NCBI GenBank assembly: GCA_963678315.1
Contig: OY782781.1
Location: 832,001 to 896,000 of the forward strand
Length of the DNA stretch: 64,000 bases
Direction of reading: 5' to 3'
Source of the DNA: Candidatus Cloacimonadales bacterium
GTDB lineage: Bacteria > Cloacimonadota > Cloacimonadia > Cloacimonadales > JAFGVF01
Below, one piece after another: positions 15,001 to 24,000 of this stretch (positions within the stretch are counted from its first letter, which is position 1; the number at the start of each line of letters is the position of its first letter). A program made the position numbers.

Positions 15001-18000
15001 AGCTTACGAATCTATTTTGCGTAAGCATGAACTTTGTTCAACCTATCGGTGGATGCTTACACTCCAAGCCCAGCTTACGAAAATACAGACCGGGATTGTA
15101 AGCTTCCCAGCTTACAAATCTATTTTGCGTAAGCATGAACTTTGTTCAACCTAACGGTGGATGCTTACACTCCAAGCCCAGCTTACGAATCTATTTTGCG
15201 TAAGCATGAACCTTGTTCAACCTATCGGTGGATGCTTACACTCCAAGCCTAGCTTGTGAAAATACAGACCGGGATTGTAAGCTTCCCAGCTTACGAAATA
15301 TTATTGGGATTGTAAGCTTCCCAGCTTACGAATCTATTTTGCGTAAGCATGAACTTTGTTCAACCTAACGGTGGATGCTTACACTCCAAGCCCAGCTTAC
15401 GAAATATTATTGGGATTGTAAGCTTCCCAGCTTACGAAAATACAGACCGGGATTGTAAGCTTCCCAGCTCAATGTCATTAAGTTAAGCTAATATACATTT
15501 TTCTTATTCCTCTTCCAAAAGCAAAGCCATTGATATGCTTTACCTTTCGACCGTTCAAATTTTCTATTAGGTCTTATTGGAACAGGTGTTTGTATAAATA
15601 TTTTATTTAATTTAATAATCAGTTTATCTATATCACTTTCTGTGCATAATAAATAAAAAAGATTGTCTTTTATAGCATTAAATGAGATAGCTTTATTTAC
15701 TTTCTGTTTATATTTATTGTTTTGGCTTCTCTTTTTTAATTCATTCTCAGCATCTTCGGTAAGTATTGTTTCTAGATTAGATAGAAAAATAGTTGAATAA
15801 AAATCTTGCTTTATTGATTCAACTGATTTACCTGTAAAGTTTTCTAAAGATAAACGTCCCTTAATAACGCCATAAAATGTTTCGACTCCCCATCTTTGCC
15901 AATATAAACGTTTAAACTCTTCTGTAGGATAAAGTTCTTCATCTAACAAAGATGTCGCTAGTATCTCAACTTCACCAGAATCTAAAATAACTTTTACTAA
16001 TCTTAACTGTATCTCATCTGTAAGGTTAGTCTTATTCTTTTGTACTCTAAGTCTAGATCTCTTTAGAGTAATAATTTCACTCTCTTTATTACTGTTCTTC
16101 ATCAAAGATATTTCTTTTATCCAAGAGGTACCACACCTGATTAAAAAATTTATTCCTTTATCATAGCAATCACTTACAAGTTCATAAGATGGATAACCTC
16201 TATCTAAAATTACAAGATCTTCTTTACCGAGATGTTTTAAATGATTTATGGCAAGAGCTCTTTCTGATTCTCTTGAGTGTGTAATTGTGGAATCGATTAC
16301 TATATTATTCATAACGTCATATGCTACTGAGGCTATTGCTCTTACGTGCTCACCAACTTTTCCACTTGGAGTCTGGGTAGGAATTGTATTAAAATATTCT
16401 CTAGTTTCTTGGTTATCTGGAACTGAGACGCGTGTACCATCTATGGCTATTAATCGGAAACCCTTATACCTTTTATAACTTTTATCATTATAAAACTCTT
16501 TTACAATTATATCTTTATTTAAGTCTACAAATAGTTTGTAAGAAAATTTTCGACGTGCTTGAGTAAAAGCACTTGAACTTACTGTTTCGCAGCCTTCTAC
16601 AAATCTATCAAAGAACTCATTAAGTCTAATCTGAAGTGATTTTACACTTTTCATAAGAACGAGTATTGCTAATGATTTAAAGCTAAATTTACGTTTTCTC
16701 AAGAAAGACTTTTCTCCTATTTTATATTTATTTACAGTTGAATCTAAACCTAACACATAACTTATTAATTTCAATATTTTTTTTTCATTATGACCCTAAT
16801 TATTCATTTATTACATAGTTTTTATAGTTAATTATTTTAGTCAAATCTTAACTTAATGACATTGAGCTTCCCAGCTTACGAATCTATTTTGCATAAGCAT
16901 GAACTTTGTTCAACCTATCGGTGGATGCTTACACTCCAAGCCCAGCTTGTGAAAATACAGACCGGGATTGTAAGCTTCCCAGCTTACGAAATATTATTGG
17001 GATTGTAAGCTTCCCAGCTTACGAATCTATTTTGCGTAAGCATGAACTTTGTTCAACCTAACGGTGGATGCTTACACTCCAAGCCCAGCTTACGAATCTA
17101 TTTTGCGTAAGCATGAACCTTGTTCAACCTATCGGTGGATGCTTACACTCCATCTTGAAGGTATCGGCCACTTATAATTCTTAATATTTGGGGGTTTATT
17201 AGGGGCATTTCTGTAAATTGTAAGCTTGCCTTCTTTCTTTGGAAAAAGAAAGAAGCCTGCGTCTAGGGACAGCAGGCTAAATATTCCACTAAAAAAGGGA
17301 ATGTGTGCTAAAATTCTATTTTAACTTAATAAATTTACTTTGGTAAGATTGATTTCCATTCTTTACTTTGACCAAGTATAAACCACTTGCTGTAGTCTTA
17401 TTATTCATATCTAAGCCATTCCATTTAACAAGTGAGGAAGAAGTTGAGAATTGCTTAACAAACTGTCCTTTTATATTATAGATTGATATTTTGCTAGTAG
17501 TTTTGGCTGGGTTGTCAAGTTTAATACTAATAGATCCTTGCATAGGGTTTGGGTAACAAGAAATATCTAATTGAGCAAGTTCTACTTCTGAATTACTATT
17601 AGGAGTGGTATTTTCTGCAAAGATGATGTCTGTTGGGTAGAGAGCAACTTCATAACTTAAACTATTCTGAATGCTGTTGTCAGTAACATGAACTGTACCA
17701 TTAGAGCCCCAATTAGAATTAACATAAGCAAGGACCTGTCCATCAGTAGCGATAGTAGATCCACCAGGAGTAAGAGGATTTTCAATATTTTCTACAAGAG
17801 TATTATTGTTTAAATCAATAACATATATTCCAGTGTTATTAGATTCAGAAATATAAGCTCTATCATTTAAGAAAGCAGCTTTACCTATGCTTACACCTGT
17901 AGGAATACTAGCAATAATTTGATTATTTGTAGGGTCAATAACTTCAATCTGTCCCATTACACTTGACCAGTTACCAGTACACATTACATAGATTAAACCA

Positions 18001-21000: not shown

Positions 21001-24000
21001 AAATCATGATGATAGTCTTCTTCTCTTCTTGGTGAAGCTTCTTCATAATATTAAGTATCTCAATCTGGTGATTAATATCTAAGTGAGAGAATGTTTCATC
21101 TAAGAGAATATAATCTGTATTCTGAGCAATAGCTCTACCAATATAGGTTCGTTGCTTCTCTCCACCACTTAACTGATTGATGTATTTGTTGCGTAAATGA
21201 CCTAATTGTAATTTAGTGATTATCTCTTCAACAACTTGTTTATCTTCCTGAGAATAGCTATTCCAAAATGATATAAAAGGAAACCTTCCCATGGTAATTA
21301 TCTCTTCTACGGTGAAGTTATACTGAATATGAGACTCTTGAGGAATTAGTGTTACCTTTTTAGCCAAGTCCTTACTATTAATCTTATTGATATCTTGCTT
21401 ATCAATAAGGATATCACCAGATAGTCTATCTAGAAAGCCAATTACTAGCTTCAATAAAGTTGACTTGCCACAGCCATTAGGTCCCAGAATAGAGATAAAT
21501 TCACCCCTATCAAAAGACAGATTTAGCTTGTTATAAATCTTGTTTCCTGGGTAACCAGCTTCTAAATTCTTAATATGTATCATGTTTCCTCGAATAATAT
21601 TCTCTTCTAAATTATAGTAATTAAACTTGTGTAACTTAAATGCTTGTATTTTATTGAAGGTATAGATATATCTTCGAGATTCCTTTAATTACCGTGCTTC
21701 GCAGTATTAAATGGACTCAGTGGCAGGTTTCCTGGCTTGTAGTTTCAACAAAATATATACCTTCCCAGACTTATTCATCCAGTGATATATATCAACTATT
21801 ACTACTTACAGTGGCGAAGACCGCTCTCGCTTCTAACGAGATTCCCTTTTACTCTTGCACCATTGAGTTACACATATTTGTAGCTATTTAATTTTGTTAG
21901 CTTTTACTGTCAATAGAATTGTTCTATTATCTACATCTCGTTATCAGTCACACTTTCAATAGTAACAAGTTGTTTGAGGAATTCTAGCTTTTTATGCTCT
22001 CTGAAAGATAGAAATGTTGAAGAAAGTGAACATAATTATAGTTCCAAGCCCTTCTATTAAGTTAAGACAACTAGAAGAATAACATTAATTCCCAATAAAT
22101 ATCATCAAATAGTAAGTTAACACTGTTAAAAGAGACCTTCTATCACAAAATAAATAATAAATAGGTTACTATTTTACATTTTTGGAAAATAGCTTGCATA
22201 GTTTTTATTTAAATGTTATATTTGCGTTAAGATTATAATAATACCAATTTTTATTGGTGATGTGAAATTAAATATGTAAAGGAGTAAACATGAAAAAAAG
22301 CTTAGCTTATGTTTTGTTGTTGTTAAGTATTTTTTCTCTTACAGCTGCTCAAATTAGCGTTGTAGGCGAAGTATTTACGGAGACATGGTGACCTTATTGC
22401 CCACGTGCAAGAACAGGTCTGTTCAATTTATATGATAATCAACCCCACGTAGTCCCACTAATCTGGCAAGGTGATGGATCTCATGAATCACCTGGATATA
22501 CACAACGTCGTGGACTAGTTGGTTCTACTTCACAAGGTATTCCTCAATGTGCTATTCAAGGTATTTACCTAGAAGTTGGCGCTGCAACAGATGCTTATAA
22601 CCAACAATATCTTCCTCGTTATAACCAAGTTATCAACACAGAAGCACCAATGTCGATTTCAGCTTTTGTATTCGAAACTACAGAAGGCTATCAATTAACA
22701 GGTTCTATAGCCCTCGAACAAGCTATTGATAATAATGATGTTAAAATAGTTTATATACTTGCAGACTATGTAAGTGATGATTATTTCTCATCTGTAGTAG
22801 CTTATGAATACGAACCATTAACTATTTCAGGTCAAGGACAGACAGTATCTTTCAATCATGAATTTACTGCTGAAGCATCATGGAATCCAGAAACTGTAAA
22901 AGGTTATGTGATGGTGCAAAACTTTGCCAACAATGATGGTGAAATCTTCCAAGCTGCTGAAGCAGGCACAGGTGCTGTTTCTGCAACTGCTTTAGATTTT
23001 GGTGATTCATATATTGGTTCTAACTTCACAAAAGAATTCTCAGTATTCAATGTTGGTACAGAAACAGCTAATATTGAAGTAAACATGACAGGAGATGCTT
23101 TCTCTATTACTGGTGATATGACTTATACTCTTGAGCCAGGAACAAGCCAATCTCATACTGTTCAATTTGTTCCTACAGCTGAACAAGCTTACTCAGGCAC
23201 AATAGATATTACTACTGATATCCCAATGTTTGAAAATAACACTGTAATAATCACTGGTAATGGTTTTGTTGATAATGCTCCTTCAATAGCTAACTTAGCT
23301 TTAGAAGGAACTCTAATGAATAAATTCTCAGTTGAAGTTTCTTATAACTTTGTTGACATTGACAATGATGGTCAAGGTGAATCTCAGTACACTTGGTATG
23401 AATCAGAAGACCAAGAAAACTGGACTGAATATGTAAATATTAATGCTAACTATAACAAAATTAATATTTCTGATGACTTAGTTGGTAAATACCTTAGATT
23501 CGTTGCTGAACCAGTTGATGAACATGGTATGCCAGGCCAAGTTGCTTCAGTCGAAACAGATCAGCCAATCGCTGATTTAGCTGCACCTACAAACCTAAGC
23601 TTAGATATTGCTGATGGTAATAATATTACCCTAAACTGGACTGCTCCTGAACTTCCTGAAATTAGAGGTTTATTCGGTTACAAAGTTATGCGTGGTGCTG
23701 AAATCGTTACTACCATAATGGATACTGAAGAAACTAGTTATACTGATGAAAATGTTGCTGATGGACAATACACTTATGCTGTAAAATCTATCTATGCTCC
23801 AGGTGGTCTTTCAGGAAACTCAAATGAAATTACTGTTCTAGTAGAGAATGGTCAAGCTACTGTTGGTAACGACCAAAGCACTGTTCCTGTTGCTAGTATT
23901 TCTAATGGTCCTAACCCATTCAGTAATTCAACTAATATCTTCTTCCAAACTAGAAAATCAGCTCAAGTTAAAGTTGATATCTATAATGTGAAAGGTCAGC

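Follow-up and report, generated by a model that had tools for sequence, protein, structure and literature searches.

To understand how a Cloacimonadota bacterium might take up vitamin B12, we analyzed a 64-kb stretch of its genome (the window), in which minus-strand genes for an ATPase of the ABC type, a TonB-dependent receptor, and a protein of 417 aa follow a cobalamin riboswitch. An earlier note had placed all four elements correctly (Table 1) and had likened the last to the B12-capturing BtuG propellers of Bacteroides, with a type IX secretion system (T9SS) sorting domain instead of a lipid anchor. Is it a BtuG-type capture protein, and how would it reach the cell surface and be held there? 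Our data suggest that the operon is likely the outer-membrane half of B12 (corrinoid) uptake, comprising a BtuG-like propeller exported by the T9SS and switched off by B12 through the riboswitch.

Table 1. Features of the locus, numbered from the first nucleotide of the window, and the related lipoprotein forms.
Feature	Position	Strand	Basis
Cobalamin riboswitch aptamer	21705-21879	-	RF00174, 86.7 bits, full model 1-189
Leader, aptamer to ATPase start codon (putative expression platform)	21584-21704	-	
ABC transporter ATPase, BtuD/FecE type, 255 aa	20816-21583	-	ABC_tran 118.9 bits
BtuB-type TonB-dependent receptor, 720 aa	18657-20819	-	Plug 52.9 bits, TonB_dep_Rec_b-barrel 98.9 bits
Propeller gene, 417 aa	17316-18569	-	ORF; stop codon 17316-17318
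Signal peptide, residues 1-20	18510-18569	-	SPase-I type by rule
Seven-bladed YVTN/BtuG-like beta-propeller, residues 21-320	17610-18509	-	
Flexible linker, residues 321-338	17556-17609	-	pLDDT <50 at 321-332
T9SS type-A C-terminal sorting domain, residues 339-417	17319-17555	-	PF18962, TIGR04183; pLDDT 66-91
Terminator-like hairpin and T-rich tail, 3' of propeller gene	17243-17278	-	Read by eye
Lipoprotein forms P0116, P0122, P0123, P0129, P0133, P0135, P0136, P0141, P0149, P0163, P0173	Loci L078-L138		

The window riboswitch is full length and lies above the RF00174 gathering score of 31.5 bits. Rfam gave just one further cobalamin riboswitch in the 2.99-Mb genome, which precedes a putative, unrelated T9SS cargo of 893 aa with three novel repeats. 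Within the leader, a terminator scan gave no terminator-like site on the minus strand, and the fold of 21565-21725 (minus strand) was no better than those of shuffled sequences (z -0.36). The hairpin downstream of the propeller gene was absent from the consensus scan list because its stem is bulged.

The ATPase stop and receptor start overlap by 4 nt. Among NCBIfam models, the ATPase matched FecE (249 bits), heme (229 bits), and corrinoid (224 bits) ATPases, all under their cut-offs. It would drive a BtuC/BtuF pair encoded elsewhere in the genome, where the only FecCD permease and the only Peripla_BP_2 protein sit together 1.6 Mb away. The receptor combines a CarboxypepD_reg-like N-terminal extension with the plug and 22-strand barrel of its class, and its closest characterized relatives are BtuB proteins. 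TonB-B12 and BtuB were its best NCBIfam models, far under their cut-offs; the top one, TIGR01779 (TonB-B12), gave 127.4 bits against 599.7. The ten best PDB matches of the receptor family profile (A3) were all BtuB (B. theta BtuB2, BtuB3, and BtuB1, and E. coli BtuB; 132-142 bits), after which scores dropped to 117 and 92 bits. This family was present in 59 of 61 Cloacimonadota genomes, nearly always as a single copy.

The leader of the 417-aa protein, judged by sequence rules, is of the signal peptidase I type (n-region MRKK, a 14-residue hydrophobic core, and L-N-A ahead of R21). Leaders of 46 relatives were similarly built, with small residues at the end. The window leader contained no lipobox: its sole Cys, C14, comes after Val (position -1) and is not kept among relatives, four of which (L011, L016, L036, and L052) carry an ambiguous lipobox with Cys after G or S. 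At the C-terminus, Por_Secre_tail (PF18962) matched residues 339-414 (E 2.9e-13; 50.3 bits versus 27) and the type-A sorting model TIGR04183 scored 51.7 bits (cut-off 23); the type-B model TIGR04131 stayed under its cut-off (13.2 bits versus 35). These results bear out the sorting domain and the lack of a typical lipobox described earlier, and the leader type, previously judged by eye, holds by rule, with C14 unconserved.

An AF2 model built on a 25-row alignment (mean pLDDT 87.8, pTM 0.72) contained seven propeller blades superposable on solved BtuG. The C-terminal fifth, earlier described as poor, now included a well-modeled sorting domain, with only linker residues 321-332 below 50. Foldseek repeated the previously reported BtuG hits (8ptf, E 4.6e-17, 23% identity, TMq 0.63), and the top match was the archaeal S-layer YVTN protein 1l0q. 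While the similarity to 8ptf stands, its description as BtuG2 with CNCbl does not: the BtuG2 label stems from the PDB title, the sequence is that of BtuG1, and preprint 10.1101/2024.02.16.580637 gives cobinamide as the ligand.

The closest known systems include BtuG1 (8PTD/8PTF/8BLW), BtuG2 (8BMY/8BMX/3DSM), and BtuG3 (8OKV/8P97) of Bacteroides thetaiotaomicron, as described in PMC6143338 (Wexler 2018), PMC10404256 (Abellon-Ruiz 2023), and preprint 10.1101/2024.02.16.580637. Common to BtuG and the window protein are a seven-bladed propeller of approximately 300 residues, a gene 3' of a BtuB-type receptor gene with a cobalamin riboswitch ahead, an extracellular location (predicted for the window protein), and a conserved face predicted to cap the receptor. 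Unlike BtuG, the window protein lacks a lipobox, its Cys, and a lipoprotein export signal, carrying a signal peptidase I leader and a T9SS type-A domain instead. Its host belongs to the Cloacimonadota, whereas, according to PMC6143338, Bacteroidetes alone had BtuG in a set of 313 gut strains.

Identity to BtuG was 15-23%. A profile of the propeller family aligned in register with BtuG1 over blades 1 to 5 (77.8 bits), followed by BtuG3 (62 bits) and BtuG2 (56 bits). Scores were lower against hydrazine synthase (44 bits), Lp49 (37 bits), and YncE (35 bits), and true BtuG1-like and BtuG2-like proteins were equally distant from each other (45 bits). DUF5074 (PF16819) is indeed below its gathering score of 27.2 bits, as reported, but the six-frame search yielded 22.8 bits (E 3.9e-5) in place of the claimed 26.3, and hmmscan of the 417-aa protein listed no match to it at E values up to 1.

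BtuG contact residues were taken from preprint 10.1101/2024.02.16.580637 and PMC10404256 and mapped by sequence alignment and hand counts of residues in HMMER printouts, not by superposed structures. The earlier note had left these residues unchecked, and the outcome is mixed. Like residues occupied approximately 7-8 of the 15 BtuG2 contact positions in the sequence alignment; pairs included (BtuG2 to window numbering) Q93 to N55, Q219 to N182, W194 to Y154, Y335 to W287, and N107 to S69. In the same MAFFT alignment, other ligand positions were changed, with the corrin-contacting R133 replaced by W/Y in the window family, W272 and Y316 by S, and S195 by G. The NEGxF clamp loop of BtuG (BtuG2 E55, G56, and F58) was missing, as a deletion of 5 residues, from every one of the 47 T9SS forms and 12 lipoprotein forms of the family, and a second short BtuG insert was absent from the window protein.

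Modeling of the propeller with the receptor gave an ipSAE of 0.81 (0.80-0.82 across runs), compared with 0.01 for the best of three controls. Contacts agreed by at least 83% between runs, and partner pLDDT was at least 88. Of 157 solved complexes, 116 attained the ipSAE mark, as did 2 of 215 mismatched pairs; these counts are only rough because the alignments were our own. In the model, family-invariant propeller loops met spaced barrel loops, with the plug not involved, and the invariant propeller residues, mostly Asn, Gln, Ser, and Gly, lay on the docked face. As BtuB-BtuG complexes have already been solved (8BLW, 8BMX, and 8P97), this result may be recall. Fold, remote homology, gene neighborhood, and the modeled placement on its BtuB-type receptor support the 417-aa protein as a BtuG-type propeller, which may bind B12.

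The strongest evidence for a cobalamin uptake unit came from comparative genomics. We found the propeller, nearly always once, in 174 of the 201 Cloacimonadota genomes sampled (133 of the 151 good ones). Among 53 related loci from species genomes, 30 had a cobalamin riboswitch upstream on the strand of the propeller gene: 22 directly before the propeller gene, among unrelated neighbors, seven before ATPase-receptor-propeller, and one before receptor-propeller. Throughout the phylum, the propeller gene is a member of the cobalamin riboswitch regulon. The receptor fell inside the examined upstream flank at 29 of the 53 loci, and in several complete genomes the propeller and receptor genes were far apart. 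Eleven loci with complete upstream DNA had the ATPase-receptor-propeller order with no riboswitch and a divergent Rrf2-IscS-NifU cluster in its place. Fur and FeoB were encoded just downstream at some loci.

Lipoprotein forms of the propeller (304-354 aa) matched its profile in register (204-232 bits) and scored 48.8, 27.1, and 26.7 bits against DUF5074. Their motifs and deletions relative to BtuG were identical to those of the T9SS forms, and they likewise occurred in riboswitch-receptor-propeller operons, with the receptor directly upstream in 29 metagenome loci and a cobalamin riboswitch before receptor-lipoprotein in 13 of 20 scanned. They differed in having a lipobox with an acidic run after its Cys, in lacking a sorting domain, and in being approximately 80 residues shorter. 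One was labeled Candidatus Marinimicrobia. In a quick tree, the 47 T9SS forms were sister to the 12 lipoprotein forms, and three Bacteroidota BtuGs stood apart from both; judging from these sequences, a single change of anchor type would suffice between them.

In Bacteroidota, T9SS type-A cargo includes gingipains and secreted glycosidases. The window protein shares with such cargo a Sec leader (by rule) and a C-terminal Por_Secre_tail, and its genome encodes SprA (517 bits) and PorU (573.6 bits), each exceeding its cut-off. PorV-like (131.8 bits versus 250) and PorZ-like (145 bits versus 260) matches were under theirs, and 67 further places matched the PorZ model by its sorting-domain part only. 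GldM/PorM had no match in the genome, and the same model was silent in every control genome too. We know of no test of T9SS function in Cloacimonadota so far. With regard to B12 need, B12-binding domains were found in four ORFs, pointing to B12-dependent enzymes, and CbiC was not found in this 97.9%-complete, single-contig genome.

We propose that, when B12 is scarce, the operon would make a BtuD-type ATPase, a BtuB-type receptor, and the BtuG-like propeller. The latter would use Sec to pass the inner membrane and the T9SS to pass the outer one, via its type-A sorting domain, which the PorU sortase should then remove. Outside the cell, its conserved polar and aromatic face would capture corrinoids, and the propeller, seated on the extracellular loops of the receptor, would pass on the vitamin as Bacteroides BtuG does. 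To describe the protein as anchored by its sorting domain, as had been done, is wrong wording because this domain is normally cut off. A covalent tether to the surface is possible, even if we lean slightly against it; being held by the receptor alone and being released both appear doubtful.

Release would make the protein a diffusible corrinoid scavenger, hemophore-like for B12, which loses its sorting domain to PorU and returns to the receptor rather than forming a permanently mounted lid. This is unlikely but deserves serious weight. It would explain why a solitary propeller gene with a riboswitch of its own lies apart from the receptor at 22 of 53 loci, and why the two genes lie far apart in several complete genomes. 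The window protein has no lipid anchor, and type-A sorting domains in Bacteroidota also serve secreted soluble enzymes. The large and confident interface of the docking model argues instead for a lid, as do the sister lipoproteins, which are membrane-bound by design and adjoin the receptor gene. Retention is also consistent with the PorZ-like and PorU genes, given that in P. gingivalis PorZ and PorU attach cargo to the surface.

The earlier note cautioned that generic YVTN propellers score nearly as well as BtuG, and 1l0q in fact ranked first in Foldseek and also against the profile, which it matched in two stretches with 99.5 bits. Together with the missing clamp loop and the sub-threshold DUF5074 score, this would fit a generic surface or S-layer-like propeller without B12 binding, its riboswitch reflecting another B12-responsive surface need. 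We consider this very unlikely. 1L0Q, an archaeal surface-layer propeller with a PKD domain, shares the YVTN repeat signature and the order of propeller then Ig-like domain, but has no link to B12 or a receptor. Its two matching stretches are out of register, mirroring the repeat consensus, and true BtuG1-like and BtuG2-like proteins match it too. A generic propeller would also leave unexplained the riboswitches at 30 of 53 loci and at 13 of the 20 scanned loci of the lipoprotein sister forms, the adjoining BtuB-type receptor gene, and a single-copy propeller that co-occurs with the receptor almost everywhere.

Less probable still is a lid for a receptor of heme, a siderophore, or a metal chelate, as might be read from the FecE and heme models that score best on the ATPase, the 11 riboswitch-less loci beside the Rrf2-IscS-NifU iron-sulfur cluster operon, and the downstream Fur and FeoB. 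The best solved relatives of the receptor family are all BtuB, most loci have cobalamin riboswitches, and the genome encodes a single FecCD/BtuF-type importer, with no other transporter under a cobalamin riboswitch. An extracellular enzyme on a propeller scaffold, lactonase-like or corrinoid-remodeling, is the least credible reading, as no catalytic-family model of Pfam or NCBIfam reached threshold on the 417-aa protein and its invariant residues, largely Asn, Gln, Ser, and Gly, lie on the docked face.

The preferred reading remains a BtuG-like propeller exported by the T9SS for corrinoid uptake. More speculatively, and on balance improbably, Cloacimonadota may export by T9SS a whole riboswitch-controlled set of B12-capture proteins, consisting of the propeller, perhaps as a released "corrinophore" shuttling corrinoids to BtuB, and the 893-aa cargo. 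Our literature search turned up no T9SS cargo that serves a TonB-dependent vitamin transporter as its capture partner; if the reading is true, the BtuG-like propeller would be the first known. This Cloacimonadota bacterium seems to catch B12 outside the cell with a relative of the gut Bacteroides propeller, with T9SS export replacing fixing by a lipid.

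The riboswitch-controlled unit in the window is a real, well-supported B12 uptake operon. The order that the earlier note had claimed, from riboswitch through ABC ATPase and TonB-dependent receptor to a BtuG-like propeller, was recovered in full on the minus strand (see table). The leader between aptamer and ATPase folded no better than its shuffled versions, and a terminator scan of the operon strand listed none; a hairpin with a T-rich tail, absent from the scan listing, was seen by eye 3' of the propeller gene. As the propeller gene is the operon end in relatives too, the IS4-family insertion sequence farther downstream has not cut the operon. 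Between this transposase and the propeller gene (16870-17152), a 71-nt unit occurs twice in tandem, and a third copy lies nearby. The Acido-Lenti-1 RNA, matched elsewhere in the window, occurs in three copies just 3' of the propeller gene in one related locus (L015, 7242-7896).

Features of the operon and its surroundings, with positions counted from the start of the window
Feature	Position	Strand	Remark
Cobalamin riboswitch aptamer	21705-21879	-	86.7 bits
Leader		-	121 nt, between aptamer and ATPase
ABC ATPase	20816-21583	-	255 aa
TonB-dependent receptor	18657-20819	-	720 aa; start overlaps ATPase stop by 4 nt
Propeller ORF	17316-18569	-	417 aa; 87 nt past receptor gene
IS4-family transposase	15488-16774	-	179.5 bits; farther downstream of operon
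RNase P RNA	4950-5333	+	elsewhere in window
RnfC gene	12910-14238	-	elsewhere in window
TPP riboswitch	27676-27765	+	elsewhere in window
Acido-Lenti-1 RNA match	46267-46313	-	elsewhere in window

Comparative genomics provided the strongest evidence for a function in B12 uptake. The propeller family was present in 174 of 201 sampled Cloacimonadota genomes (133 of 151 of good quality; 53 of 61 genera), almost always once per genome. Among 53 propeller loci from species genomes, a riboswitch lay directly 5' of the propeller gene in 22, amid unrelated neighbors (glycolysis genes, Fur/FeoB, tRNA synthetases). It preceded ATPase, receptor, and propeller in seven loci, as in the window, and receptor and propeller in one. 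All 30 riboswitches were upstream of and on the same strand as the gene. The remaining 23 loci, in which no riboswitch was found, comprised about ten cut by a contig end, two distant matches from outside the family, and eleven complete ATPase-receptor-propeller units. In these eleven (L021, L029, L033, L034, L039, L040, and L044-L048), a divergent Rrf2-IscS-NifU cluster lies about 60-100 nt from the start of the unit, and a FecCD permease is encoded past that cluster. Two loci, L017 and L035, contain two cobalamin riboswitches less than 4 kb apart, one 5' of the receptor and one directly 5' of the propeller gene; in L017, an opposite-strand gene separates the two riboswitch units.

The receptor family occurred in 59 of 61 sampled Cloacimonadota genomes, nearly always as a single copy. 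Searching the PDB with its sequence alone returned only weak plug matches to CirA and E. coli BtuB. BtuB models were also its best NCBIfam matches, yet far below their cut-offs. A family profile built from 20 members was more informative: the ten best PDB matches were BtuB2, BtuB3, and BtuB1 of Bacteroides thetaiotaomicron and E. coli BtuB (132-142 bits), with the next matches at 117 and 92 bits.

The 417-aa protein consists of a leader (MRKK, a 14-residue hydrophobic core, and L-N-A), a propeller (residues 21-320), a disordered linker, and a type-A type IX secretion system (T9SS) sorting domain (residues 339-417; PF18962 50.3 bits, TIGR04183 51.7 bits). With its signal peptidase I-type leader, this architecture bears out the earlier claim of a sorting domain instead of a lipid. 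An AlphaFold2 model from a 25-sequence alignment had a mean pLDDT of 87.8. The earlier note had cautioned that generic YVTN propellers score nearly as well as BtuG, and its caution was justified: the top Foldseek match was 1l0q, an archaeal S-layer protein with YVTN repeats. BtuG1, BtuG2, and BtuG3 entries came next as a solid block (TMt 0.74-0.79, rmsd about 3 A), and Lp49 and others came after with lower TM. VIA-align scored BtuG only 2-6 Z units higher than unrelated seven-bladed propellers. As these unrelated propellers reach 28-32.5, the fold alone does not settle the family assignment, and a BtuG call from structure ranking alone was rejected.

A profile of 47 propeller domains matched BtuG1 at 77.8 bits in one stretch, in register across blades 1-5, followed by BtuG3 (62 bits), BtuG2 (56), hydrazine synthase (44), Lp49 (37), and YncE (35). 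The match to 1l0q was higher (99.5 bits), but consisted of two out-of-register stretches; genuine Bacteroidota BtuG proteins match 1l0q as well. A BtuG1-like protein matched BtuG2 at only 45 bits, so this family is about as far from BtuG1 as BtuG paralogues are from one another. The earlier description of a BtuG-type propeller thus holds for the fold and the in-register BtuG1 match, but not for Pfam DUF5074, where the protein scored 22.8 bits against a threshold of 27.2, nor for the BtuG clamp loop, which is gone. The capture protein is a variant of the BtuG kind with a T9SS sorting domain in place of the lipid anchor, for which B12 binding is predicted and surface tethering may follow secretion.

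We mapped corrinoid contacts onto the propeller by MAFFT sequence alignment. The available text of two sources gives the BtuG2 contacts as E55, G56, F58, Q93, N107, S131, R135, W149, W194, S195, Q219, Y239, W272, Y316, and Y335 (10.1101/2024.02.16.580637; PMC10404256), and that of the preprint gives F60, E139, R141, R244, E249, and Y290 for BtuG1 (10.1101/2024.02.16.580637). BtuG numbering was set from a residue count in HMMER printouts. Cys32 and Thr164 agree with this count, as do most of the named residues, while Arg135 of the preprint is R133 in it and Glu139 is Q139. The NEGxF loop of BtuG2 (E55, G56, F58) falls in a 5-residue deletion shared by every T9SS and lipoprotein form. Elsewhere, Q93 aligned with N55 (47 of 47 propellers), N107 with S69, S131 with S94/N95, R133 with W97 (Trp in 29, Tyr in 16), W149 with F112, W194 with Y154, S195 with G155, Q219 with the invariant N182, the Y239 loop with W201, W272 with S227, Y316 with S271, and Y335 with W287. 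About half of the BtuG2 positions are therefore kept in kind in this alignment, without the clamp loop, which would fit a divergent candidate corrinoid site. One of the structures compared, 8PTF, is titled in the PDB as BtuG2 with cyanocobalamin, the label that the earlier note had adopted, yet its sequence is that of BtuG1, and the portion of the preprint that treats it describes BtuG1 with cobinamide (10.1101/2024.02.16.580637).

Docking of receptor residues 100-720 (20-row alignment) with the propeller (47-row alignment) gave an ipSAE of 0.81 (runs 0.80-0.82), and the best of three controls reached 0.01. Among solved complexes, 116 of 157 reach the docking mark, as do 2 of 215 mismatched pairs; these counts apply only roughly here as our own alignments were used. 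Contact agreement between runs was at least 83%, with a partner pLDDT of at least 88. Because BtuB-BtuG complexes have already been solved, this pass may mirror likeness to them and may not be independent evidence. The docking side of the propeller is formed by family-invariant loops (residues 27-32, 45-46, 70-73, 95, 154-155, 198, 201, and 286-290). On the receptor, the modeled interface comprises stretches about 45-50 residues apart, the plug not included, a spacing that would fit extracellular loops.

The family also includes lipoprotein sister forms. Most of the 47,504 matches that an exhaustive profile search gave at E 0.001 or better are generic proteins with YVTN repeats; 907 matches reached E 1e-30 or better. 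Besides the T9SS forms, the search yielded 304-354-aa proteins matching in register at 204-232 bits. Among twelve of these chosen by length for inspection, 11 carried a lipobox Cys, several with an acidic run after it, and none had a sorting domain; one was labeled Marinimicrobia. Lipoprotein forms scored 48.8, 27.1, 26.7, 25.8, and 24.0 bits against DUF5074. Metagenome loci were then gathered with a 6-row lipoprotein alignment. A receptor lay directly upstream of 29 lipoprotein-type genes (80 metagenome loci; lipoprotein loci L078-L138). Scanning of 20 of these receptor-linked lipoprotein loci placed a riboswitch before receptor and lipoprotein in 13 and on the other strand in one, with none in six. 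These riboswitch-receptor-lipoprotein operons lie outside Bacteroidota.

Relatives of the window protein come almost entirely from Cloacimonadota metagenome-assembled genomes. All 46 examined have leaders ending in small residues right before the first strand, and in 44 the tail is 84-139 residues long and contains the sorting domain's PNP motif. In L011, L016, L036, and L052, a leader Cys follows G or S 4-5 residues before the predicted signal peptidase I site, possibly a lipobox in a sorting-domain protein. In a quick maximum-likelihood tree of 47 T9SS forms, 12 lipoprotein forms, and three Bacteroidota BtuGs, each group was set apart by a branch of its own (SH-aLRT 96, 89, and 97), and T9SS and lipoprotein forms grouped together (97). 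A single change of anchor type between these two forms suffices. The tree has a midpoint root only; a root on the BtuG side would make the lipid anchor ancestral and the sorting domain derived.

Components for export were found in the genome, a single 2.99-Mb contig that is 97.9% complete. SprA (517 bits) and PorU (573.6 bits) were above their cut-offs, while PorV-like and PorZ-like proteins fell under theirs; 67 other places matched the PorZ model at its sorting-domain end. GldM gave no match, but the same model was silent in every control genome and is uninformative. In Porphyromonas and Flavobacterium, PorU cleaves off type-A domains, and the cargo is either attached to LPS or released; the propeller may meet either fate.

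The bacterium probably depends on outside corrinoids: B12-binding domains occur in four of its ORFs, and no CbiC was found in this 97.9%-complete single-contig genome. Its sole FecCD permease and sole BtuF-type binding protein are encoded side by side 1.6 Mb away (C1:2494270-2495920, on the genome's contig C1), with neither a riboswitch nor an ATPase beside them. The riboswitch-controlled ATPase of the window is likely the missing third part of this importer, which would then be split. The only other cobalamin riboswitch of the genome (contig 275301-275476) lies directly 5' of an 893-aa ORF (C1:275301-278242) whose product carries three novel repeats, each about 140 aa long, in its N-terminal part, along with Big_9 and sorting domains. 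Beyond the latter two, no Pfam family matched even at E 10, and no sequence relative was found in the PDB. AlphaFold2 with 3 rows gave a low-confidence model (mean pLDDT 34.1), and Atlas offered only leads below 0.9 (DUF4430, 0.88; a "cobalamin biosynthesis protein family" cluster, 0.81). The N-terminal part was present in 3 of 61 genomes, all from the organism's own family, and a riboswitch accompanies both other copies (L164, L165). We consider this protein a candidate new extracellular B12-binding protein.

BtuG-assisted B12 capture has so far been described only for Bacteroidetes surface lipoproteins. Among 313 gut strains, BtuG homologues occurred only in Bacteroidetes, according to the available text of Wexler et al. 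(PMC6143338). In the accessible text of a Cloacimonadota propionate paper (PMC13082233), a term search turned up neither cobalamin nor B12 nor T9SS, and the available part of PMC9331221 names T9SS just for proteases, not for its hemophore. Our search of the available literature found no report that relevantly connects BtuG with type IX secretion, the one match being on the BAM complex, and none that connects BtuG with Cloacimonadota or Marinimicrobia. If our reading is correct, BtuG-type capture would be much wider than described: a core single-copy trait of Cloacimonadota, which act as key syntrophs in anaerobic digesters, with lipoprotein forms in other uncultured lineages too. Inside one protein family, the route of the capture protein to the surface could switch between a lipid anchor and type IX secretion. 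It would then be testable whether the lid of a TonB-dependent transporter requires a lipid hinge and whether vitamin scavenging is a role of T9SS outside Bacteroidota. For studies of how corrinoid affinity arises, the family would provide a smaller BtuG relative that lacks the clamp.
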